Shown: positions 1,977 to 61,629, numbered from the stretch's first letter. The stretch: 64,000 nt of DNA from an uncultured Candidatus Saccharibacteria bacterium (GCA_964572275.1 CAZNED010000001.1:87188-151187); one strand, 5' to 3'. A program made the numbers and translations. Notes: generated by a model not told the origin, from the sequence alone.

Positions 1977-2004
1977 GGCTCGAAGAATAATGCCTCTTCG
2001 AGCC
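1977..2004 (-). terminator. Intrinsic terminator of the minus-strand micro-ORF pair
   Basis: Perfect 10-bp stem GGCTCGAAGA/TCTTCGAGCC with an 8-nt loop, followed on the minus strand by TTCTTTTTATT. Confidence 0.7.
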
Positions 2005-2019
2005 CCCGGAGCCCCCCTG

Positions 2020-2112
2020 CTACTTGTCCAGCCCAGCCAACCACCTTCCAAGCGTAGATCCGCAGATCATTGCTAGGAAGAGAAGCAATACCTCCAACAC
2101 TTTTGTCGTCAC
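2020..2112 (-). CDS. 30-codon hydrophobic micro-ORF (VTTKVLEVLLLFLAMICGSTLGRWLAGLDK)
   Basis: GTG start overlaps the upstream stop (GTGA). GGGAGGG lies 5 nt upstream. The sequence is GC-rich. It corresponds to the C-terminal part of the implausible 95-aa track ORF 2020..2307. Confidence 0.45.
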   Translation of the reverse strand: MTTKVLEVLLLFLAMICGSTLGRWLAGLDK

Positions 2113-2267
2113 ACCATCCCTCCCAAGTTGTCCCAAGAGAGATAAACGATGGGGGCGACGATGATGCAAATCGCCACTCCGATTATCTGAGCGACCGAAC
2201 CCAAAAACAGAAACAGCAGAGTCGGTCCCAGACCAATCGTTGCGAATCCTTTTCCGATGCGATGCAT
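2109..2267 (-). CDS. 52-aa small membrane protein (MHRIGKGFATIGLGPTLLFLFLGSVAQIIGVAICIIVAPIVYLSWDNLGGMV)
   Basis: Hand translation. GGAGGG lies directly upstream of the ATG (spacer about 3-4 nt). Two hydrophobic spans and GC3-rich codons. Below the ORF-track length cut-off. Confidence 0.55.
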   Translation of the reverse strand: MHRIGKGFATIGLGPTLLFLFLGSVAQIIGVAICIIVAPIVYLSWDNLGGMV

Positions 2268-2348
2268 AGACCCTCCTTAACGTCGCAGGTAAATAAAACG
2301 ATCGCATGAAATAATAATTTTGTCAATTTATTAATATTCAAATCAATA

Positions 2349-2377
2349 TTGACATAAATAATATTTATGTCAGAATA
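2349..2377 (+). promoter_or_regulatory. Sigma-70-type promoter with an overlapping perfect palindromic operator
   Basis: TTGACA (2349-2354), a 17-nt spacer, then AGAATA (2372-2377). The palindrome TGACATAAATA-A-TATTTATGTCA spans 2350-2372. An additional TGTCAAT...ATTGACA inverted repeat lies upstream. Confidence 0.6.
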
Positions 2378-2403
2378 AATTATCTCATCGTGAGGGGGTT
2401 CGG

Positions 2404-2904
2404 ATGGTTCAAAAAGCTATTGATTTGGTACCGGAAGACTGGAGGTCTCGTTTTCCTGAGACCGTGTCAGAGTTGGGATTGCTGGGTGAACGTACCCTGC
2501 AAGTTCTTCTGGAGAGATGGTCGCAAGAGAGCGAAGAAGCAGCCATCATCCAGCGGATCATGGAGGGAAACACCTCTCCCACTCCACCCTTAATCTTTCT
2601 CCGGCCGAACGACTGGTTGGAGAAGGGGTGCAGCGTCCTATGGATCAAGGTGAATCCCAAAAACGGCTCCATGAGAATCCATGGACCGATCGACATCATA
2701 GAGTTGTACTACGGTAAGGAAGGAGAGGTGATAGCAGCCAGGATGAAAAGCGGAGAGACCGTCCTGGCTCATCGCGTATTCCACCTCTATGAAATAGAGG
2801 TACTGAAGAAACATCCCCTGCTTCTGAAAGTCTGGCTAAGGGGAGTCTCTCCCCAAGACAGGGATCGTGTAAAGGAGGCGATCGAAGGGTTCTGGCTCCC
2901 CTAA
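2404..2904 (+). CDS. Hypothetical soluble protein, 166 aa, GC-rich orphan
   Basis: ORF track. GAGGGGG lies 5 nt upstream of the ATG. It has its own promoter and terminator. I recognise no family. Confidence 0.6.
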   Translation: MVQKAIDLVPEDWRSRFPETVSELGLLGERTLQVLLERWSQESEEAAIIQRIMEGNTSPTPPLIFLRPNDWLEKGCSVLWIKVNPKNGSMRIHGPIDIIELYYGKEGEVIAARMKSGETVLAHRVFHLYEIEVLKKHPLLLKVWLRGVSPQDRDRVKEAIEGFWLP

Positions 2905-2921
2905 AACCAGAAGGACCGGGT

Positions 2922-2960
2922 GGGCTCGATGCGTGGTATGCGTCGGGCCCTTTCTCATTT
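2922..2960 (+). terminator. Intrinsic terminator of the 166-aa ORF
   Basis: Stem GGGCTCGA/TCGGGCCC (one G-U pair) at 2922-2950, followed by TTTCTCATTT. Confidence 0.6.
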
Positions 2961-2995
2961 AAATAAAAACGGGAGCTGAATGGTTCAGCCCCCCC
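2961..2995 (-). terminator. Intrinsic terminator of the 29-aa micro-ORF
   Basis: Hairpin GGGAGCTGAA-TGG-TTCAGCCCCC at 2971-2995. On the minus strand it is followed by GTTTTTATTT. Confidence 0.6.
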
Positions 2996-3018
2996 CTCCC
3001 CAACCCTCTTTGTCTTTG

Positions 3019-3108
3019 TCATGGATGATACCGCCGCCACATACCCGAGATCAGAGATACGAGAATCAGCGCTCCGATGGCTATTCCGAAAAACTCGGCC
3101 AAAGACAT
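3019..3108 (-). CDS. 29-aa hydrophobic peptide (MSLAEFFGIAIGALILVSLISGMWRRYHP)
   Basis: Hand translation. AAGGAGGG lies 4-5 nt upstream of the ATG. One TM-like span plus a basic tail, with a dedicated terminator. Below the ORF-track cut-off. Confidence 0.55.
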   Translation of the reverse strand: MSLAEFFGIAIGALILVSLISGMWRRYHP

Positions 3109-3211
3109 AACTCCCTCCTTTTCGCCTAAGGCAATAATGTAAATATAGCATATAAGTTCTATACTGTAGATTGTTTTTTAAAAGAAATTGTAGTAACCTG
3201 AATTGTTTCCT

Positions 3212-3317: not shown

Positions 3318-3342
3318 TTTTGAATCTTACTAAGAGCCAGAT

Positions 3343-4608
3343 TTAAGACGGATTATTGACACGACCCATAAACAGGATTGCCCCCGTTTCTGAATGTTCA
3401 ATTAAGAAGAAGAATGGTCTATCGGCTCGGAAAACTGGTTTGTCTATCATCATAGCCGATTCTTTCATGATTACTGCCGTTGCGGCAGCTGCTTCGGTTC
3501 CTTCTTCATTTACTTCCACAAAAGCTTGATGAATAACTTCGCTGATAAAAAGATCTTTATTCCCTGTCATTCCTGAGAAATCAGCATCCATTGAGAAAGC
3601 AATTGGCATACCCATTTCCGCCAGATCTTCCTTCATGAAATATTTTGTTTCCAATTTAAAGCGAGGCAGAAATAAATCGATTTCTCGAGGTTGCAAAGAT
3701 TGACGATAAGTCTCTAATTTTTCCAATATCAAAGATTCTTCTAATTGCCCTATCTCATTTTGTTTAGGCAATAAGATCAACATAGCCAGTTCTTCTCCTT
3801 TATATGGAAGAGATAATATTTGCACATCATCTATTTCCGCATATCTTAACGGTTCTTCTCCGATACGTTGCATCATTGATACGGCTACCTTTTCACTCTC
3901 ATCTAAATAAAAATCGCTCTCTTGCGTTAAATCGGAATCGAACCCTTCCAACCAAGTACCTTTGAAATATATGGCATTAGTCAAAACTAGTCGCGTAATC
4001 GGATCAATAAATCCAGCCGGAATTAAATCCTTAATCTTTTCTTCTGTTTGATCTTCAACCCATTGATTAATCGTTAATCTGGAACCTTCGGGATCATCGC
4101 GGAAATTAAGCGATGTCGCCTTTCCTCGATAATATTTTTCAATAACAGAAAAATATTCTGTTAAGAAATTATAATCCTCCTGAGGCCACAATACATTGAC
4201 TGTCTTTAAGATATAATCAGATTTTGATTGATTGAAAATATTATAAAGGCCAGCGAAACCTTTTCCCCTTGTTTCTTCATCCGGCAGATGAAGTACCAGT
4301 TTCATTTCTTCAGCTGTTTGATTTTTCGCTCCTTCATAAGTCATGGCTAAAGCCGTAACAATGCTATAAGGCGAGAAAAATATATTGTCTTCTTGTTGAC
4401 GATATTGATTATAAAGGTCCAGGGCAAATTGATTACTACTGCGAACTATCTCTTGCGTGCTTTCAATATCTGTTTCTACATCAAGAATCGGACCATCTTC
4501 TGGTGTTATTGGAGCTTCGCCACGCCAATAACCAAACAGGAGAACGATCACAATCATAGTTAAGATCATTAAAACGATGTTTATGATTGTTTTTCCTTTT
4601 TGTTTCAT
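3343..4608 (-). CDS. Serpin family protease inhibitor, N-terminally membrane-anchored
   Basis: 421 aa. Serpin signatures FFSPYSIVTALAMTYEGA, NAIYFKGTW and hinge/RCL EEGTEAAAATAVIMKESAMM...FRADRPFFFLI. N-terminal TM span IINIVLMILTMIVIVLLFGYW. Confidence 0.9.
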   Translation of the reverse strand: MKQKGKTIINIVLMILTMIVIVLLFGYWRGEAPITPEDGPILDVETDIESTQEIVRSSNQFALDLYNQYRQQEDNIFFSPYSIVTALAMTYEGAKNQTAEEMKLVLHLPDEETRGKGFAGLYNIFNQSKSDYILKTVNVLWPQEDYNFLTEYFSVIEKYYRGKATSLNFRDDPEGSRLTINQWVEDQTEEKIKDLIPAGFIDPITRLVLTNAIYFKGTWLEGFDSDLTQESDFYLDESEKVAVSMMQRIGEEPLRYAEIDDVQILSLPYKGEELAMLILLPKQNEIGQLEESLILEKLETYRQSLQPREIDLFLPRFKLETKYFMKEDLAEMGMPIAFSMDADFSGMTGNKDLFISEVIHQAFVEVNEEGTEAAAATAVIMKESAMMIDKPVFRADRPFFFLIEHSETGAILFMGRVNNPS

Positions 4609-4675: not shown

Positions 4676-4703
4676 TTGACAAAACATAAATATGTGTTAT
4701 CCT
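4676..4703 (+). promoter_or_regulatory. Promoter of the GC-rich membrane-protein cassette
   Basis: TTGACA (4676-4681), a 16-nt spacer, then an extended -10 TGtTATCCT (4695-4703). Confidence 0.5.
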
Positions 4704-4724
4704 CATAATTGTAAGGAGGTGCAC

Positions 4725-5039
4725 ATGAAACTCGGTATCTTCTGGGCCGCCGTCGGTGGTACTAGCGTCGCGGCTCTCGTCTACCAAGCAGGAGCAGGTG
4801 TGTGGTTACTACTAGCCGCACTCATCTTCAATGTCGTCGTCGGTGTGATTGCGTGGCGACATGGGCGAGAGCGCCGTGCGATTATGATCATCGCGACGGT
4901 CGTCACAGTGGTTATTGCGGCGACACTCTTCGCGGCATTGTTCGCCACCAATCCGGCGAACGGAGTCATGACCATCCTAGTGATGGTCATCGCAGCGGAC
5001 GTCGCCATCGTGTGGAGATGGCGATGGACAAACATCTAA
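4725..5039 (+). CDS. 104-aa Ala/Val/Gly-rich small membrane protein (about 4 TM), GC-rich orphan
   Basis: AAGGAGG lies 5 nt upstream of the ATG at 4725; the track start at 4692 has no SD. Begins MKLGIFWAAVGGTSVAALVYQAGAGVWLLLAALIF... GC3-rich codons. Confidence 0.65.
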   Translation: MKLGIFWAAVGGTSVAALVYQAGAGVWLLLAALIFNVVVGVIAWRHGRERRAIMIIATVVTVVIAATLFAALFATNPANGVMTILVMVIAADVAIVWRWRWTNI

Positions 5040-5043
5040 TAGG

Positions 5044-5100
5044 GCCTCCCTATCGGACGAGCTCGAGGGTTCGAGCAAAATCCGGCTAGGGAGGCGTTTT
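5044..5100 (+). terminator. Long composite hairpin terminator
   Basis: Outer stem GCCTCCCTA/TAGGGAGGC (5044-5095) with inner helices, followed by GTTTTCATT. Confidence 0.6.
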
Positions 5101-13394: not shown

Positions 13395-14069
13395 TTAACT
13401 TAAAGGTAAAGTTGGCATTGAATTTTCAGATTTGCGACCCCAAGCTGCTATACCTAGAAAAACATAAAAAACTATTACACCGACTCCTGGAAGCAAAGAA
13501 GTCAAAGCCCACCATTCCGGACAACCTATTCGAGAGAATATCTTCAAGTGCCAAAAGAAGATAAAAACCGATAAAGTTGTCATCGCTAGAATATTAATTA
13601 TCGGGATCGGTAAAGTTAGGATCAGTAGCATGGGCCACCAATGCTTCTGGGCCGTTTTGCTTATCAAATAGAGATTTACGATCGGAATCCAGGCCAGCCA
13701 AGCAGGCTTTACTCCCAGTTTCTTCGCCAATTTCATGTAAACCAGGGAAGTATAGACATATACACCAATCAAAATGATTAATATTAAGGGTATCAGAAAT
13801 ACCATTAAGATGATTAAACCAGAGACAAATTCTTCTAATTTCTCAGAATCAATATAAATATTTTGTTCTCCATTTAAATCAGGCGAAGAAACATCAATTA
13901 TTCCCGACAAAGACTCTCCTTCTAAAATATTTTCATCGGAATTTGCTACCTCCGCCGCAGTATTAATATCATCATTCAATGGCAATTCCGCGGACACAGA
14001 CAGGGTCGCTATGATAATCCCAGATATGATTAAAGCGAGAGCCGTTAGTTTTAAAAAATATTTTTTCAT
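13395..14069 (-). CDS. Multi-pass membrane protein with signal peptide, unknown function
   Basis: 224 aa. Signal peptide followed by 4-5 hydrophobic spans. Confidence 0.6.
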   Translation of the reverse strand: MKKYFLKLTALALIISGIIIATLSVSAELPLNDDINTAAEVANSDENILEGESLSGIIDVSSPDLNGEQNIYIDSEKLEEFVSGLIILMVFLIPLILIILIGVYVYTSLVYMKLAKKLGVKPAWLAWIPIVNLYLISKTAQKHWWPMLLILTLPIPIINILAMTTLSVFIFFWHLKIFSRIGCPEWWALTSLLPGVGVIVFYVFLGIAAWGRKSENSMPTLPLS

Positions 14070-14135
14070 GAAACCAAAAAATAATTACGATTTGATTATA
14101 ACATAATCAGTTTTTATTTACATTAAACTATAGAC

Positions 14136-14164
14136 TTGTTGATTTTCGATAATTTATATATAAT
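14136..14164 (+). promoter_or_regulatory. Promoter of structured RNA R0
   Basis: TTGTTG (14136-14141), a 17-nt spacer, then TATAAT (14159-14164). Confidence 0.6.
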
Positions 14165-14170
14165 GAATAT

Positions 14171-14395
14171 TAGCAGTACCCGGAGGGAGCATTTCCCCTT
14201 CAAGTTTGTACGCTTCGGACGGGATGTCTTCTCGTTCGGCGTGTTCCCCCCTCCGGCAGGTATCCTGGAGAAAGGACGTGCGTTTCCTGACCGTAGAGAG
14301 GTCCGGTTTGGCACACACCCGTGCCTCGCACCTAAAGGGAGCGCACTCCTTCTCCATGATCATATGGTCCTCGCAAAGGGTAGCGAGGACTTTTG
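14171..14395 (+). ncRNA. GC-rich structured RNA of about 225 nt (R0), family unknown
   Basis: Helix CCGGAGGG (14180-14187) pairs with CCCTCCGG (14249-14256). A 15-bp helix pairs GGAGAAAGGACGTGCGT (14267-14283) with GCGCACTCCTTCTCC (14341-14355). Inner hairpin GGCAC/GTGCC (14310-14325). Terminator GTCCTCGC-AAAGGGTA-GCGAGGAC (14367-14390) followed by TTTT. No credible ORF. Confidence 0.6.
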
Positions 14396-14406
14396 CAATA
14401 TTTCTC

Positions 14407-14435
14407 TTGACATTCTGTCAATAATGCGCTAGATT
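14407..14435 (+). promoter_or_regulatory. Promoter of sRNA-1
   Basis: TTGACA (14407-14412), a 17-nt spacer containing TGACA-N3-TGTCA, then TAGATT (14430-14435). Confidence 0.6.
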
Positions 14436-14441
14436 ATGAGT

Positions 14442-14559
14442 GAGGAAGGGAGAGCGTGCTCAGTCGTTGGTTGCTAGGTGACGTGAAGTATCGTTGAGCA
14501 CGCTCTCTTCCTCCAGTGTATGGGACTCTCGCATGGTGTGTGCGAGAGTTTCTCTTTTT
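14442..14559 (+). ncRNA. Small RNA sRNA-1 (about 118 nt): long 5' hairpin plus terminator
   Basis: Stem of about 20 bp: GAGGAAGGGAGAGCGTGCTCA (14442-14462) with TGAGCACGCTCTCTTCCTC (14495-14513). The loop carries GGTGACGTG (14477-14485). Terminator ACTCTCGCA-TGGTGTG-TGCGAGAGT (14525-14549) plus a T-run. Confidence 0.7.
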
Positions 14560-14584
14560 ATAAACTATTCGGCCTTGAATGCCA

Positions 14585-14613
14585 TTGACTTTTGAGGTTA
14601 TTATGTCAGGATT
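14585..14613 (+). promoter_or_regulatory. Promoter of sRNA-2
   Basis: TTGACT (14585-14590), a 17-nt spacer, then AGGATT (14608-14613). The block TATGTCAGGATTAAT nearly matches the one at 2366-2380. Confidence 0.6.
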
Positions 14614-14619
14614 AATCAG

Positions 14620-14753
14620 AATGAGGCCGGGGAGGAGGAAGAGCATCACCTCCTATGTTCGGTGACGTCGCTGTTCCCGCTTGTGTACCTCCTCCCCCTG
14701 CCTCTTGCTCTGTGATCCCTTGCGCATGGTGTTTATGTGCAGGGGTTCTTTTT
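14620..14753 (+). ncRNA. Small RNA sRNA-2 (about 134 nt), paralog of sRNA-1
   Basis: Stem GGGGAGGAGG (14629-14638) with CCTCCTCCCC (14688-14697) plus 3 outer bp. The loop carries GGTGACGT (14661-14668) and ATCACCTCCT (14645-14654). Terminator CCCTTGCGCA/TGTGCAGGGG (14717-14745) plus a T-run. The tail TTTTTATAAAC is identical to that of sRNA-1. Confidence 0.7.
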
Positions 14754-14767
14754 ATAAACACAAAAAA

Positions 14768-14792
14768 AGACGGAATTGCACACCTTCCGTCT
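14768..14792. terminator. Bidirectional terminator (RRM gene / sRNA cluster)
   Basis: AGACGGAA/TTCCGTCT stem flanked by an A-run and a T-run. Confidence 0.7.
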
Positions 14793-14807
14793 TTTTGTTC
14801 TTACGAA

Positions 14808-15077
14808 TTAATAGCGACGATCGTCGCGGGGTTTGGGAGGCTTTGCTTCGCTGACAGCGATAGTGCGGCTACCCAATTGGTGACCATCCAGTTCAGCGAT
14901 TGCCTTTGCGGCATCTTCCTCATTCTTGTAGGTCACGAATCCGAAACCTTTGGAACGACCTGCGTGATCAGTAATGATGATTGCTTCTTCTACTTCACCT
15001 AATCCAGCGAAGAGAGATTTCAATTCATCTTCTGTCGTGTTCCAATCAAGGCTTCCGATAAAAAGCTTTTTTGGCAT
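14808..15077 (-). CDS. RRM-type RNA-binding protein (89 aa)
   Basis: RNP2 KLFIGSL and RNP1 KGFGFVTY. Single RRM domain. Confidence 0.9.
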   Translation of the reverse strand: MPKKLFIGSLDWNTTEDELKSLFAGLGEVEEAIIITDHAGRSKGFGFVTYKNEEDAAKAIAELDGHQLGSRTIAVSEAKPPKPRDDRRY

Positions 15078-15209
15078 ATATTTAATTAACTAATAGATTG
15101 TAACGCTAACCCCGTATTCCGATACGTCGTAGAACTAATTGTGCGCATTCTTTCTACTTTCTCTGAAAAACGAAGCTACCTGTCTAGTATGATATATCTC
15201 CTGGAAAAG

Positions 15210-15461
15210 TCAAGGCAGAATTTCTTCGCTCTCTTCGCTGATCACTTCTTCTGTTTCTTCTTCAACACAAGGTTCTTCCCATACTCTTAAACATTTCTGC
15301 TTTGGTTCACACCAGCTGTATCCTGCGGCAATCAAACAACCATGTTCATCTGTGTCACCACCGATGATCTGTTCTTCTTCTTGGTTATTATTAGCCAGGA
15401 TCAGCCATAACCCGACAATTACGATAACTATAACAATAATAGCTATTATTATTTTTTTCAT
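15210..15461 (-). CDS. Small membrane-anchored Cys-containing extracytoplasmic protein
   Basis: 83 aa. N-terminal TM, then DEHGCLIAAGYSWCEPKQKCLRVWEEPC and an acidic tail. Confidence 0.6.
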   Translation of the reverse strand: MKKIIIAIIVIVIVIVGLWLILANNNQEEEQIIGGDTDEHGCLIAAGYSWCEPKQKCLRVWEEPCVEEETEEVISEESEEILP

Positions 15462-15526
15462 ATTAATATTATAACTTACTCTCGCACTTTACTCCTGACT
15501 TTTAAAAAAATCAAGCAAATGTTCAA

Positions 15527-16171
15527 TTATGTTAATATACTCTGAAAATATTCTCTTATAGCTGGTTGAATATCTGTTGGGTACTCTACTATCTTAAAGA
15601 CATTACCCGCCTCTAATCGCTCTGGTTTATTAAATCCCCAGGCTACTCCAATTGAACCGACATTCAATTGCTGAGCCTCTCGAGCATCACCCAGAGTATC
15701 GGTTACAAAAACACAATGCATCGGACCAGTACCATATTCTGAAAAAACCATTCTGATTTTTTCAACCTTACTCACGTGAACATCATTCCCCATAATCTTC
15801 ATGAAGCAACTAATCAGCCCATGCTTTTGCATAAAATCCTTAATCGCCCGAGTAAGATTAGACGAGACAATGAATAATTCGTATTCTTGATGAAGTTTTT
15901 TAATAACTTCTTCCATCCCCTCGAATATCTTCACTTCCTTTTCTGCTCGGGGAAGATAATGTTCAAAAAAATCATAACTGCCACTGTGCCCTGCCTTCTC
16001 TAACCGAGCTCTCCAATTCCAATCATTAACATTCCTTTCAGTAATTTGCCGATAATCATCTTCTGTCATATCTGGGAAAACAGACTTATGAACTTCAAAT
16101 GCTGTTTTAAAAGAATCCGCAATTACACCGTCAAAGTCAAATAACACGAAATTCTTACGTTCGGGCAACAT
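15527..16171 (-). CDS. HAD-superfamily hydrolase
   Basis: 214 aa. Motif I FDFDGVIADS, plus the downstream SSN and GD motifs. Confidence 0.8.
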   Translation of the reverse strand: MLPERKNFVLFDFDGVIADSFKTAFEVHKSVFPDMTEDDYRQITERNVNDWNWRARLEKAGHSGSYDFFEHYLPRAEKEVKIFEGMEEVIKKLHQEYELFIVSSNLTRAIKDFMQKHGLISCFMKIMGNDVHVSKVEKIRMVFSEYGTGPMHCVFVTDTLGDAREAQQLNVGSIGVAWGFNKPERLEAGNVFKIVEYPTDIQPAIREYFQSILT

Positions 16172-16185
16172 AGTCCAAGAATATT

Positions 16186-16434
16186 TTATTCAGGCTTTTT
16201 GATCTCTGTTTTCGAAACAAGACTTTCTTCTTTTTTCTTGCTGAAAACAAAGATGTAAAGAATCTCTAATATACCAAGCGTATTTAATAAAAGCAAAACG
16301 ACAAACCATATTTTTTGACTGCGACGAGCTGCTCGCCAAAGTGCCCATCCTGTCCAAGCAATAATCCAGAGAAGTATCAATGAGAGTAATTCCGGATTAA
16401 TTGAGAATAATTGTTCAATACTGACTGGATCCAT
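16186..16434 (-). CDS. Small two-TM membrane protein
   Basis: 82 aa from the ORF track. Two hydrophobic spans. Confidence 0.55.
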   Translation of the reverse strand: MDPVSIEQLFSINPELLSLILLWIIAWTGWALWRAARRSQKIWFVVLLLLNTLGILEILYIFVFSKKKEESLVSKTEIKKPE

Positions 16435-16481
16435 AATAATATTTTTAATAATAAATTACATTATTATAATCTGGCTATTGA

Positions 16482-16509
16482 TTGATGGCAAATCAGATTA
16501 TGCTAAAAT
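16482..16509 (+). promoter_or_regulatory. Promoter of GC-rich element D
   Basis: TTGATG (16482-16487), a 16-nt spacer, then an extended -10 TGcTAAAAT (16501-16509). Confidence 0.55.
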
Positions 16510-16515
16510 TAGACA

Positions 16516-16730
16516 GAGCGAAGAGCATTCCTTGGTCTAGTAAGCACAAGAATTCTCTTCGAAATGAACAAAACGCGCCGAAAAAGGAGGAAAACAATGA
16601 AAAGGCGCCGAGGTATGAGTCTCGGGACTGGTGACGTGCCGTCGACCCGCTCCGAAGTCGAGGTGTCCTAGAACCGCGATCCGGTTCACAGGCACCATGG
16701 GGGTGCTTCCGTGAAGCGCCCCCTTTGCTT
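16516..16730 (+). ncRNA. GC-rich structured small transcript (element D), possibly dual-function
   Basis: Stems CGAAGAG/CTCTTCG, GAACCG/CGGTTC and GTGCC/GGCAC. Terminal hairpin GGGGGTGCTT-CCGTG-AAGCGCCCCC (16699-16723) followed by TTTGCTTTG. Shares ATGAGT (16615-16620) and GGTGACGTG (16630-16638) with sRNA-1. It is antisense to the flanking minus-strand genes. Confidence 0.5.
16597..16671 (+). CDS. Candidate 24-codon ORF (MKRRRGMSLGTGDVPSTRSEVEVS) inside element D
   Basis: AGGAGG (16585-16590) lies 6 nt upstream of the ATG. A coding role is unproven. Confidence 0.3.
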   Translation: MKRRRGMSLGTGDVPSTRSEVEVS

Positions 16731-16738
16731 TGCAAATA

Positions 16739-16954
16739 TTAAATTTTGATTTCTTCTTTAAAATAGGTTCGATAAAGCGGCCTAACCATCAGAATCACCA
16801 CTAGCACTATCAGCCACCAAATATTTATTGTTGTCAAAACCGGAAATATAATCACTAACAATACACCGAAAGCTATGCAGCTCCATTTGATTAGAGCCAT
16901 ATCCCACACATCCAACTTTTTAGTTTTAGATCTCATACATGATAATATTTTCAT
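16739..16954 (-). CDS. Small two-TM membrane protein
   Basis: 71 aa from the ORF track. Two hydrophobic spans. Confidence 0.55.
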   Translation of the reverse strand: MKILSCMRSKTKKLDVWDMALIKWSCIAFGVLLVIIFPVLTTINIWWLIVLVVILMVRPLYRTYFKEEIKI

Positions 16955-17185
16955 GTTTTTATAATAATTAATTACAGACTAGTTTAACATATCTTACCTT
17001 TATTCATAAAGTTTTAAAACACAAAAGGACTTGTTTAAAAGAAATATTAACTAATAGTAAGGCAAAATTATTAATACAATCCAAAAAAACACTCGATAAG
17101 AAAATATCGAGATTCTACTAATACTAATAACACTAAGTATTATTTGAATAAATAATACTTAAAAATCTAAACCACTGTCAGGCTA

Positions 17186-17248
17186 TTATTTTTTAGCCTT
17201 TTTTGGTTTTTTGGTTTCCTTTTTTCTGGAATTATTACCCTTAGCCAT
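17186..17248 (-). CDS. Candidate leaderless 20-aa Lys-rich peptide (MAKGNNSRKKETKKPKKAKK)
   Basis: Hand translation. An extended -10 TGaTAAAAT ends 6 nt before the ATG. A downstream hairpin CTCGATA/TATCGAG plus T-run lies near 17085-17110 on the minus strand. Confidence 0.35.
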   Translation of the reverse strand: MAKGNNSRKKETKKPKKAKK

Positions 17249-17369
17249 AATTCTATTTTATCATAAAAAAATTATAAATATATTTAGCTGTATTTAAATT
17301 GGTAATATTCAGATTAATTGACAAAATATCTTTTTGTTATAACATATATAAATTAGGAGGTGGTGGTGT

Positions 17370-17651
17370 ATGGCGAATTCTCATCCGGGAACTCTAGGAC
17401 CGTGGACTTGGGATCAGAGAGCGAAAGAAGCTCTCCTCCCTGTGCTCGGTCCAGCCGCAACGGAAAGAGCCATGAAGGAGGTGAAGGGGTGTCAATCGGC
17501 TCATTTCTACGTTCCTAAGGGACGTGCCTTCGAGGCGGCGCAAGCACTTAGCGCAACACAACCAGATCCAGGATATTGTGCCGCATACAGTGTTCGCGCT
17601 ATCAGCACAACCAGAATCGTCTTGAGCGCCGTCCCTAATACGGCCTCATAA
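17370..17651 (+). CDS. Hypothetical 93-aa GC-rich orphan protein
   Basis: AGGAGG (17355-17360) lies 9 nt upstream of the ATG. Upstream are TTGACA (17318-17323) and TGtTATAAC (17335-17343). It has its own terminator. I recognise no family. Confidence 0.55.
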   Translation: MANSHPGTLGPWTWDQRAKEALLPVLGPAATERAMKEVKGCQSAHFYVPKGRAFEAAQALSATQPDPGYCAAYSVRAISTTRIVLSAVPNTAS

Positions 17652-17670
17652 CATTCGAGATTTCCAGGGG

Positions 17671-17706
17671 AGGTCCGGTAGTGTTTACCGGGCCTTTTCC
17701 TCTTTT
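17671..17706. terminator. Terminator of the 93-aa ORF (convergent with the ASCH-like gene)
   Basis: AGGTCCGG-TAGTGTTTA-CCGGGCCT followed by TTTTCCTCTTTT. Confidence 0.65.
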
Positions 17707-17714
17707 GAATAAAA

Positions 17715-18056
17715 TTATCCCAATTCCCAGGCCATCAATTCGTATTTCGCTATTTTGCTCTTATAATCTGGAAAATTATGCCACACTCTCATCGCTTCAT
17801 CTTCAGTATTCAGATGAGGCATGATCTTCTTAAGATCCAAATGTTTTATCATTTCATCTATACTGCTAAACCAATATTTTTCTATAACTCTCTTTTCTAC
17901 TGTTGAATTACCGCAAGTAAATACCAAAATATCTGATTTTTCAATTTTCTTATATTTGGCGACAGCGGCTCTTGTTTCTATTGTTTTAATTCCATCTTTG
18001 ATTAAATCAAAAAACATCTTGTCCTCGCCTCTAATTCTTAATACATGTTTCTTCAT
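17715..18056 (-). CDS. ASCH/PUA-like domain protein (tentative)
   Basis: 113 aa. The pattern FDLIKDGIKTIETR...ILVF resembles ASCH-fold proteins. Confidence 0.45.
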   Translation of the reverse strand: MKKHVLRIRGEDKMFFDLIKDGIKTIETRAAVAKYKKIEKSDILVFTCGNSTVEKRVIEKYWFSSIDEMIKHLDLKKIMPHLNTEDEAMRVWHNFPDYKSKIAKYELMAWELG

Positions 18057-61544: not shown

Positions 61545-61617
61545 GGGCCAGTAGCTCAGCGGTCAGAGCAATCGGCTTATATCCGATTGGTCGGGGGTTC
61601 GATTCCCTCCTGGCCCA
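61545..61617 (+). tRNA. tRNA-Ile, anticodon UAU as read
   Basis: Acceptor GGGCCAG/CTGGCCC. Anticodon stem ATCGG/CCGAT with loop CTTATAT (anticodon at 61578-61580). Confidence 0.85.
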
Positions 61618-61629
61618 CTTAAAAGAAAA

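Follow-up and report, generated by a model that had tools for sequence, protein, structure and literature searches.

A tandem array of candidate small RNA genes next to an RRM protein gene in a Candidatus Saccharibacteria-type genome

Which genetic elements occupy the 738-nt gap between two minus-strand genes of an uncultured, AT-rich Candidatus Saccharibacteria/Patescibacteria-type bacterium, and what might they do? The gap lies in a 64-kb stretch of DNA, referred to here as the window, in which an initial annotation had recognised two adjacent small RNA (sRNA) genes and had read them as a new RNA family, possibly regulating genes that depend on a Shine-Dalgarno (SD) sequence. The observation was confirmed by the present analysis and the interpretation as a whole was partly supported. 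The gap contains three tandem plus-strand units, W0, W1 and W2, which very probably constitute a conserved, clade-restricted and previously unclassified family of sRNA genes. The units display a promoter-hairpin-terminator anatomy with statistically supported folds, homologues are present at the same syntenic site in related lineages, and Rfam contains no match to them.

Anatomy and conservation of the W0-W1-W2 array

The components of the three units are the following:

14136-14164, plus strand: promoter-like site of W0, TTGTTG-17-TATAAT, predicted from a reading of the sequence, with a weak -35 and a consensus -10 element
~14171-14395, plus strand: W0, the third unit, ~225 nt, with two hairpins and a terminator
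14180-14256, plus strand: hairpin 1 of W0, CCGGAGGG/CCCUCCGG, from the fold
14262-14360, plus strand: hairpin 2 of W0, with a GA-rich 5' arm and a CU-rich 3' arm, from the fold
14366-14394, plus strand: terminator of W0, followed by U-rich sequence, from the fold
14407-14435, plus strand: predicted promoter of W1 (sRNA-1 of the initial annotation), TTGACA-17-TAGATT, from a promoter scan, matching 10 of 12 consensus positions
14442-14513, plus strand: main hairpin of W1, with 21 long-range pairs, a 5' arm of 76% purine and a z score of -4.9 for the body alone
14477-14484, plus strand: GGTGACGT in the apical region of W1, from a motif search
14522-14559, plus strand: intrinsic terminator of W1, GGGACUCUCGC-AUGGUGUGU-GCGAGAGUUUC and U-tract (hairpin 14522-14552), with a stem conserved throughout the family
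14575-14613, plus strand: predicted promoter region of W2 (formerly sRNA-2), with two overlapping candidates
14617-14712, plus strand: main hairpin of W2, with a 5' arm of 89% purine
14645-14654, plus strand: ATCACCTCCT, read from the sequence, the same as the canonical anti-SD string of the 16S 3' end
14661-14668, plus strand: GGTGACGT in the apical region of W2, from a motif search
14714-14753, plus strand: intrinsic terminator of W2, with the loop UGGUGUUUAU and a U-tract (hairpin 14714-14748)

All strings that had been listed for positions 14407-14760 of the plus strand were recovered at their places, including ATCACCTCCT, and the two units described there, W1 (~118 nt) and W2 (~140 nt), are borne out by folds with z scores of -5.67 and -5.00, respectively, none of 200 dinucleotide shuffles being as good in either case. 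The view of a two-unit cluster was nevertheless incomplete, as W0 had been overlooked directly upstream. W0 folds with -100.2 kcal/mol (z -4.73), and its 3' arm and terminator scored 31.2 bits (E 1.9e-5) with a covariance model, R1, that comprises the 3' arm and terminator of the units and has W0 in its training set. Gene callers have placed spurious open reading frames (ORFs) of 69 and 97 aa over W0 in some assemblies. By consensus pattern, each unit possesses a promoter and Rho-independent terminator of its own, as is characteristic of an intergenic sRNA gene, the terminator hairpins being strong throughout (-17 to -25 kcal/mol).

The promoter pattern reported previously, TTGAC(A/T)-17-TAGATT/AGGATT, is present in both units. 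In W1 it consists of TTGACA at 14407-14412 and TAGATT at 14430-14435 and overlaps the palindrome TTGACA-TTC-TGTCAA; in W2 the corresponding TTGACT-17-AGGATT (14585-14613) competes with TTGAAT-18-TATTAT (14575-14604), the -10 element of which is better. The string ATGAG, described as a shared 5' end, occurs in both units at positions that are not equivalent: it is located 7 nt past the -10 element in W2 and directly after it in W1, where transcription probably starts downstream of the string. The core stem of W2 pairs 14629-14638 with 14688-14697, and its outer stem, given earlier as 3 bp, contains five pairs (14623-14627 with 14700-14704).

The motif GGTGACGT is found three times in the window (14477, 14661 and 16630) against 0.43 occurrences expected, and none of 100 shuffles reached three. 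The apical motif GGUGACGU is exact in W1 and W2, as had been noted, and is not a family-wide feature of the 12 units considered below: lineages C and D carry GUGACG and one unit of locus L001 carries GGUAACGU. It is best read as a relic of the paralogues or a weak motif. The common loop GCATGGTGT (14531 and 14724) and tail TTTTTATAAAC (14555 and 14749) of the W1 and W2 terminators were each exact at these two sites only when the window was searched.

Relatives of the array were sought in genome and metagenome collections, with the RRM (RNA recognition motif) protein encoded next to it as the anchor for the choice of loci; the contigs derive from the runs SRR13427971, SRR13427969 and SRR8437217 and the assemblies ERZ27248937 and ERZ27248920. 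Five further lineages possess units built in the same way, in the same orientation to the RRM gene and in the same syntenic place, which gives 12 distinct units in six lineages with one to three units per lineage. Outside the window the units are distributed as follows:

L001: three units
L002/L031: one unit
L003/L117-120: one unit
L121-124: one unit
L004/L126-128: one unit
L125: two units

The RRM proteins of the unit-carrying lineages are 81-100% identical (81-98% in the five further lineages), and RRM relatives of at most 79% identity reside in other gene neighbourhoods without such units. The model R1, searched over 136 RRM-anchored loci, recovered the known units alone; in the window, with filters off, it returned the three units only, the next match scoring 14.8 bits, and neither R1 nor exact-motif searches revealed further copies there. 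Among viral contigs, 26 fit the terminator-stem pattern and none fits R1, and a phage origin was rejected, the pattern matches being chance palindromes. These searches indicate that the sRNA family does not extend beyond a narrow clade, to which the records give the label Patescibacteria or 'Saccharibacteria'.

All 12 units exhibit a TTGAC(A/T)-like -35 element, a spacer of 16-18 nt, a TAnnnT -10 element, a long hairpin and a terminator, with all U-tracts and promoters on the plus strand. The plus-strand fold is more stable than the minus-strand fold in eight units, about equal in two and less stable in two. In the ten units whose hairpin bodies were scored (all except W0 and A3), the z scores range from -1.8 to -6.1 and 74% of the paired bases in the 5' arms are purines. 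Between the window and L001 the flanking DNA shows an identity of only 66-73%, against 98% for the RRM protein. That the hairpin sequences cannot be aligned is therefore to be expected, the idea that the units are hypervariable was rejected, and the retained architecture, arm asymmetry and terminator sequence are to be regarded as conserved rather than merely young. Accordingly, these comparisons indicate constraint on the architecture, on the purine/pyrimidine asymmetry of the arms and on the terminator stem.

Sequence conservation resides in the terminator stem GACUCUCGC/GCGAGAGUC with its G/U-rich loop (UGGUGUGU, UGGUGUUUAU, GUGUGGGU, UGUUGUUG or UGUGCUGUG) and not in the main hairpin. The same division applies to the covariation claimed in the initial annotation. 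In the terminator helix, 7 of 11 pairs are changed on both sides in the model-fitted alignment, a value reached by 6 of 500 shuffles. The stems of different units cannot be aligned, and strict covariation of the main hairpin is not demonstrable from two stems; among the orthologues B, C and D it amounts to one compensatory pair in three sequences, of which MAFFT misregisters one arm.

The assignment to a new family was upheld by a search of the whole window against Rfam 15, which yielded six tRNAs only at the gathering score; the families tested included FopS, RsaE, 6S, SRP, tmRNA, RNase P, Y RNA and the HEARO/omega RNAs. Matches with E up to 10 over positions 13900-18000 reached 18-26 bits at best compared with gathering scores of 40-105 and are meaningless, comprising plant miRNA precursors and BTnc201 (20.7 bits versus a threshold of 105). 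ARAGORN detected no tmRNA and unrelated tRNAs only. The tRNA genes of the window include a tRNA-Ile with UAU anticodon (61545-61618) that adjoins a tRNA-Val(GAC). The 12 units have no ORF in common, whether by position or by frame, and hence combine conserved structure and position at the same site in six lineages with the absence of a conserved ORF. A type I toxin-antitoxin RNA was rejected, since the neighbours are the genes of a 224-aa membrane protein and of the RRM protein and not a small hydrophobic toxin ORF; complementarity of at least 9 nt to a nearby small ORF was not found, except for a generic SD match. TIGR arrays of CPR (candidate phyla radiation) bacteria and phages are composed of short repeat-spacer units beside a Tas (Nop-domain) gene (PMC12045711). 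The present array is no TIGR array, as its units measure 120-230 nt and have their own promoter and terminator, the region holds no family of short direct repeats, and none of the neighbours of the array encodes a Nop-domain protein.

The RRM gene and the neighbourhood of the array

The array is flanked by the following features:

13395-14069, minus strand: gene of a DUF5684-like membrane protein of 224 aa, the upstream neighbour
14766-14794, both strands: bidirectional terminator hairpin common to the array and the RRM gene, from the sequence and lineage comparison
14808-15077, minus strand: gene of a single-domain RRM RNA-binding protein of 89 aa (Pfam RRM_1, E=1.5e-23)

The RRM gene, whose adjacency had been noted correctly, is transcribed towards the array and represents the syntenic anchor of the family. 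The last unit of the array ends 13-60 nt from the bidirectional terminator in the various lineages. This terminator is near-invariant, with one compensatory 1-bp shortening of the stem in the window copy, and its loop, read on the RRM sense strand, is GGUGUGCAA in all lineages. The sense-strand loop GGUGUGC is also present at the distant locus L106 (3285-3315), whose RRM protein is only 51% identical.

The upstream region of the RRM gene (15078-15213, minus strand), compared in the window, L001, L031, L117, L121, L125 and L126, contains a highly conserved promoter, TTGACTTT...CATACT, followed by a 5' untranslated region (5' UTR) of ~110 nt that lacks an SD sequence and forms the hairpin GUAGAA-loop(AGAAUGCGCACAAUUAG)-UUCUAC. 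The loop of this conserved hairpin is AUGCGCACAAUU, and the hairpin has no Rfam match. The 5' UTR may be an autoregulatory leader.

On the Patescibacteria-like contig of L106, an RNA with promoter and hairpin-terminator is likewise predicted to converge on the RRM gene (3330-3470, minus strand). It folds with a z score of -8.1 and has a fully exposed 10-nt apical loop, CCCCCUCCUU (unpaired probability 1.0).

Shine-Dalgarno usage and the possible function of the units

The proposal that the units regulate SD-dependent genes was considered against the pattern of translation starts in the window, which contains 46 ORFs of at least 120 codons. An SD-like 4-mer is absent upstream of 40 of them (present in 6/46), and in 11/46 a -10 box ends 4-10 nt before the ATG, compared with a background of 2.7%. 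The latter finding suggests that leaderless mRNAs are widespread in the genome. Strong AGGAGG(UG/G) sites preceding a start codon belong mostly to genes of the GC-rich islands that are scattered over the window. The relevant positions are:

5123, 11594 (minus), 12419, 26246 (minus), 30628 (minus) and 63094: examples of a TATAAT-like box near an ATG
2000-3110, 4700-5100, 16480-16740 and 17340-17710: GC-rich islands of 50-58% GC in a window of ~38% GC overall
2404, 2267 (minus), 3108 (minus), 4725, 16594 and 17370: starts of SD-led island genes, with AGGAGG(UG/G) at the correct distance

The islands carry small genes, several of them for membrane proteins, each with its own promoter, strong AGGAGG(UG) SD sequence and terminator, and they were possibly acquired. 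The 93-aa product of island gene 17370, the one island product searched, has no Pfam match.

Anti-SD-like strings recur among the units. The k-mer CCUCC is shared by 6/6 lineages, ACCUC and GGAGG by five, and ACCUCC and AUCACC by four; A(U/C)CACC, like CCUCC, resembles the anti-SD sequence, and both recur more widely than GGUGACGU. W2 and unit 1 of L001 have ACCUCCUAUG in common. Strings that contain CACC have an unpaired probability of 0.4-0.98 in the sampled ensembles of 5/6 lineages. In W2, CACCUCCU forms an 8-nt loop of the minimum-free-energy fold, CCUCC being fully unpaired in 48% of 1000 sampled structures, and with its flanks it complements UAGGAGGUGGUG (17354-17365), the ribosome-binding site of island gene 17370, over 12 bp with one G-U pair (extended by hand). 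In local alignments against shuffles, AUCACCUCCU of W2 matches the canonical 16S 3' end at 10/10 positions (p 0.02), and C1 (p 0.03) and B1 (p 0.06) also score above shuffles relative to this canonical end, which may not be that of the host. As judged from these sequences, the resemblance to the anti-SD tail is recurrent and statistically modest. In comparison with the 16S 3' end itself (...GAUCACCUCCUUUCU-3'), the likeness consists of AUCACCUCCU exact in W2, GAUCACCUUCUCUC in B1 and AUCAC--CCUUUCU in C1, whereas the matches are short, an equivalent of helix 45 is lacking and the units are free-standing genes with promoter and terminator. If the 16S tail of the clade is AUCACCUCCUUUCU, the idea of a mimic stays viable; a divergent tail would weaken it.

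The explanation that we favour as a whole, with a confidence just short of even, is an sRNA family that acts in trans by anti-SD pairing with the RRM protein as partner; the pairing mechanism taken by itself is possible and on balance doubtful. Each unit would be transcribed separately from its own sigma-70-type promoter into an RNA composed of a hairpin with GA-rich 5' arm and CU-rich 3' arm, a short linker and the conserved intrinsic terminator with G/U-rich loop. Acting in trans, exposed C/U-rich anti-SD-like segments, the clearest being the CACCUCCU loop of W2, would pair with purine-rich SD regions and thereby block translation initiation. Their targets would be the few strong SD sites, which belong mostly to genes of the GC-rich islands. 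Among possible protein partners the adjacent RRM protein is the most plausible, with RbpB and its FopS sRNAs in Bacteroides serving as the analogy. The SD-poor genome, the strong SD sequences of the island genes and the 12-bp complement of the W2 loop, together with the recurrent anti-SD-like strings of the units and the exposed loop of the L106 RNA, lend indirect support to the anti-SD idea, which is plausible in such a genome and rests on short complementarity. An extended version, in which the core genes of this Patescibacteria lineage are mostly leaderless or SD-less and the RNAs mimic the anti-SD tail and, probably with the RRM protein, selectively silence the SD-led genes of the GC-rich islands, appears distinctly unlikely; it would amount to a dedicated riboregulatory filter on SD-dependent translation.

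Several points weigh against trans-acting anti-SD RNAs. The CCUCC string is mostly locked in stems, with an unpaired probability of ~0 in W0, W1, A3, E1 and others, and neither W1 nor A2 exposes an anti-SD-like string. The resemblance to the 16S 3' end is not significant in 9/12 units and marginal in W2, C1 and B1, so that mimicry of this end was rejected as a family-wide property, and the likeness is partly a by-product of the pyrimidine-rich arms. The match between W2 and gene 17370 is of low specificity, as any anti-SD-like 8-mer pairs with any strong SD sequence. A screen of 110 more distant RRM loci for a promoter plus CCTCC retrieved L106 only. The promoters and terminators are consensus pattern matches with unmapped ends, and adjacency to the RRM gene is no evidence of binding. 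Pairing of the sRNAs with the RRM 5' UTR was rejected as well, the duplex energies being no better than those of shuffles (z -0.9 to +0.9).

The main rival holds that the units are ligands, sponges or co-factors of the RRM protein that tune its availability without pairing to mRNA, the protein recognising the G/U-rich terminator loops or the single-stranded CACC motifs. It draws on the strict synteny with the RRM gene in 6/6 lineages, the G/U-rich loops of the sRNA terminators, the terminator loop GGUGUGCAA of the RRM mRNA in every lineage (with GUGUGC even in L106), the conserved 5' UTR loop AUGCGCACAAUU and the precedent of RbpB binding the FopS and GibS sRNAs. The loop motif, however, is short, degenerate and post hoc, and most RRM relatives have no such adjoining sRNAs; we consider this explanation rather unlikely. 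That the array faces the RRM gene in all lineages, with its last unit 13-60 nt from the bidirectional terminator, would also suit a control by convergent transcription, in which polymerases or antisense read-through RNA are sent into the 3' end of the RRM gene. Little read-through is expected because of the strong terminators of the units (-17 to -25 kcal/mol) and the bidirectional terminator that follows, and the conserved long hairpins with their arm asymmetry would be left unexplained, which makes this control quite improbable. A slightly better, still poor chance is given to the view that the units are non-functional debris, either decayed remnants of the 5' and 3' ends of GC-rich island cassettes or copies of terminators, transcribed or not. 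The promoter of W2 is close to that of island gene 2404, the GA-rich 5' arms resemble SD leaders, island 16518-16740 likewise begins with a GA/CU hairpin and the number of units varies from one to three; yet the architecture, arm asymmetry, near-consensus promoters and terminator sequence have been kept though the flanking genes are ~70% identical, ORF remnants are absent and the fold of every unit is significantly better than shuffles.

The exact AUCACCUCCU of W2, together with AUCACC, which the orthologues B1, C1 and D1 have kept and which is unpaired in B1 and A3, could alternatively point to a decoy of the 16S 3' end that mimics the AUCACCUCC tail and titrates a factor acting on it, for instance a ribosome-targeting toxin, a maturation RNase or Era, whose KH domain is known to bind this 16S segment. 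As the similarity is not significant past 6-10 nt, half of the units have no such motif and no candidate partner is encoded nearby, a decoy is very improbable. Least credible of all is that the units are genes of small proteins, with the GA-rich arm as SD sequence and a tiny ORF within the hairpin. A 13-codon GTG ORF does lie inside the W1 hairpin, and the 69- and 97-aa ORFs called over W0 would be of this kind. These W0 ORFs are without Pfam family in precomputed gene tables and without counterpart in other lineages, no ORF has a position or frame common to the units, the sole in-frame ATG ORF of W2 crosses the terminator into the RRM gene, and several units contain no start codon ahead of the terminator. 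Peptides that match between lineages lie in several frames and on either strand, and the matches hence reflect conserved nucleotides.

Further observations concern the island genes. The promoter of W2 (14585-14616) resembles that of gene 2404 (2349-2380) in a common TTGACW-N13-TGTCAGRATWAAT, and TTGACW-N13-TGTCA occurs seven times with at most one mismatch, compared with 1.7 expected. Since the 2404 promoter element is a perfect palindrome (TGACATAAATA/TATTTATGTCA), the sequences suggest a common operator of both promoters. SD-led, GC-richer genes are located near the sRNA locus in four related lineages (L001, L002, L117/L119/L121 and L125). Likewise in four related lineages, a conserved protein of ~160 aa with CxxC...CxxC is encoded within a few kb of the sRNA locus; its SD-led genes include:

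L117, 4752-5243
L121, 4818-5309
L002, 7932-8450
L001, 10249-10725

Homology of island gene 2404 to these ~160-aa genes was rejected (16-20% identity). A further structured GC-rich transcript is predicted at 16518-16740 on the plus strand (z -3.6), with a counterpart in L001 (3607-3860, minus strand), and may be another sRNA. It occupies a second syntenic site, between the DUF5652 gene and a small membrane-protein gene, begins with a GA-rich/CU-rich hairpin and contains the third GGTGACGT copy (16630) as well as a 24-codon SD-led ORF that is unconserved in L001.

Significance and comparison with known systems

Taken together, the sequence comparisons indicate that the units are a genuine, previously unclassified family of a familiar sRNA kind, whose function is putative. 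We know of no RNA chaperone characterised in Patescibacteria/CPR bacteria, and a conserved sRNA locus that is a constant neighbour of a highly conserved RRM gene offers a concrete candidate pair for post-transcriptional control in this group. Literature searches on regulatory RNAs of Patescibacteria/CPR bacteria returned no described sRNA family, and those on anti-SD mimic sRNAs and on leaderless translation in CPR bacteria returned nothing specific. If the anti-SD explanation is true, the family would show how a mostly SD-less initiator singles out SD-dependent genes; if it is wrong, the units would be one more lineage-specific sRNA family and not otherwise surprising. The family is useful for annotation in either case, because gene callers now place spurious ORFs on the locus.

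The closest parallel is provided by Bacteroides thetaiotaomicron, in which the single-RRM protein RbpB binds the multicopy FopS sRNAs and GibS, and FopS represses translation by pairing near start codons (PMC11697453). Both systems comprise paralogous sRNAs with their own promoters and Rho-independent terminators and a small RRM protein in the host, and the mechanism proposed for the units described here is this repression of translation at the start region. FopS differs in having a single-stranded 5' seed and a terminator without a long GA/CU hairpin, and there is no sequence or Rfam match between it and the units. The FopS genes are dispersed, whereas the units form a tandem array beside the RRM gene, and binding by the RRM protein has been shown for FopS and is guessed here from the conserved adjacency and the G/U-rich loops.

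In Firmicutes, RsaE/RoxS and the Rsa RNAs with UCCC motif use C-rich loops to target SD sequences. The units share with them the principle of exposed C-rich loops complementary to a G-rich SD sequence, followed by an intrinsic terminator. They differ in that most of the C/U-rich sequence is locked in stems, an exposed loop being clear only in W2 (and L106), in that no Rfam match exists and in that the sequence is unconserved between units. The pairs PrrF1/PrrF2, OmrA/OmrB and AbcR1/AbcR2 are tandem duplicated, Hfq-dependent sRNAs of proteobacteria with defined seeds. Like these, the units are adjacent paralogues with their own promoter and terminator, a variable 5' part and a conserved 3' part, with the distinction that here the conserved part is the terminator and the host belongs to another phylum.

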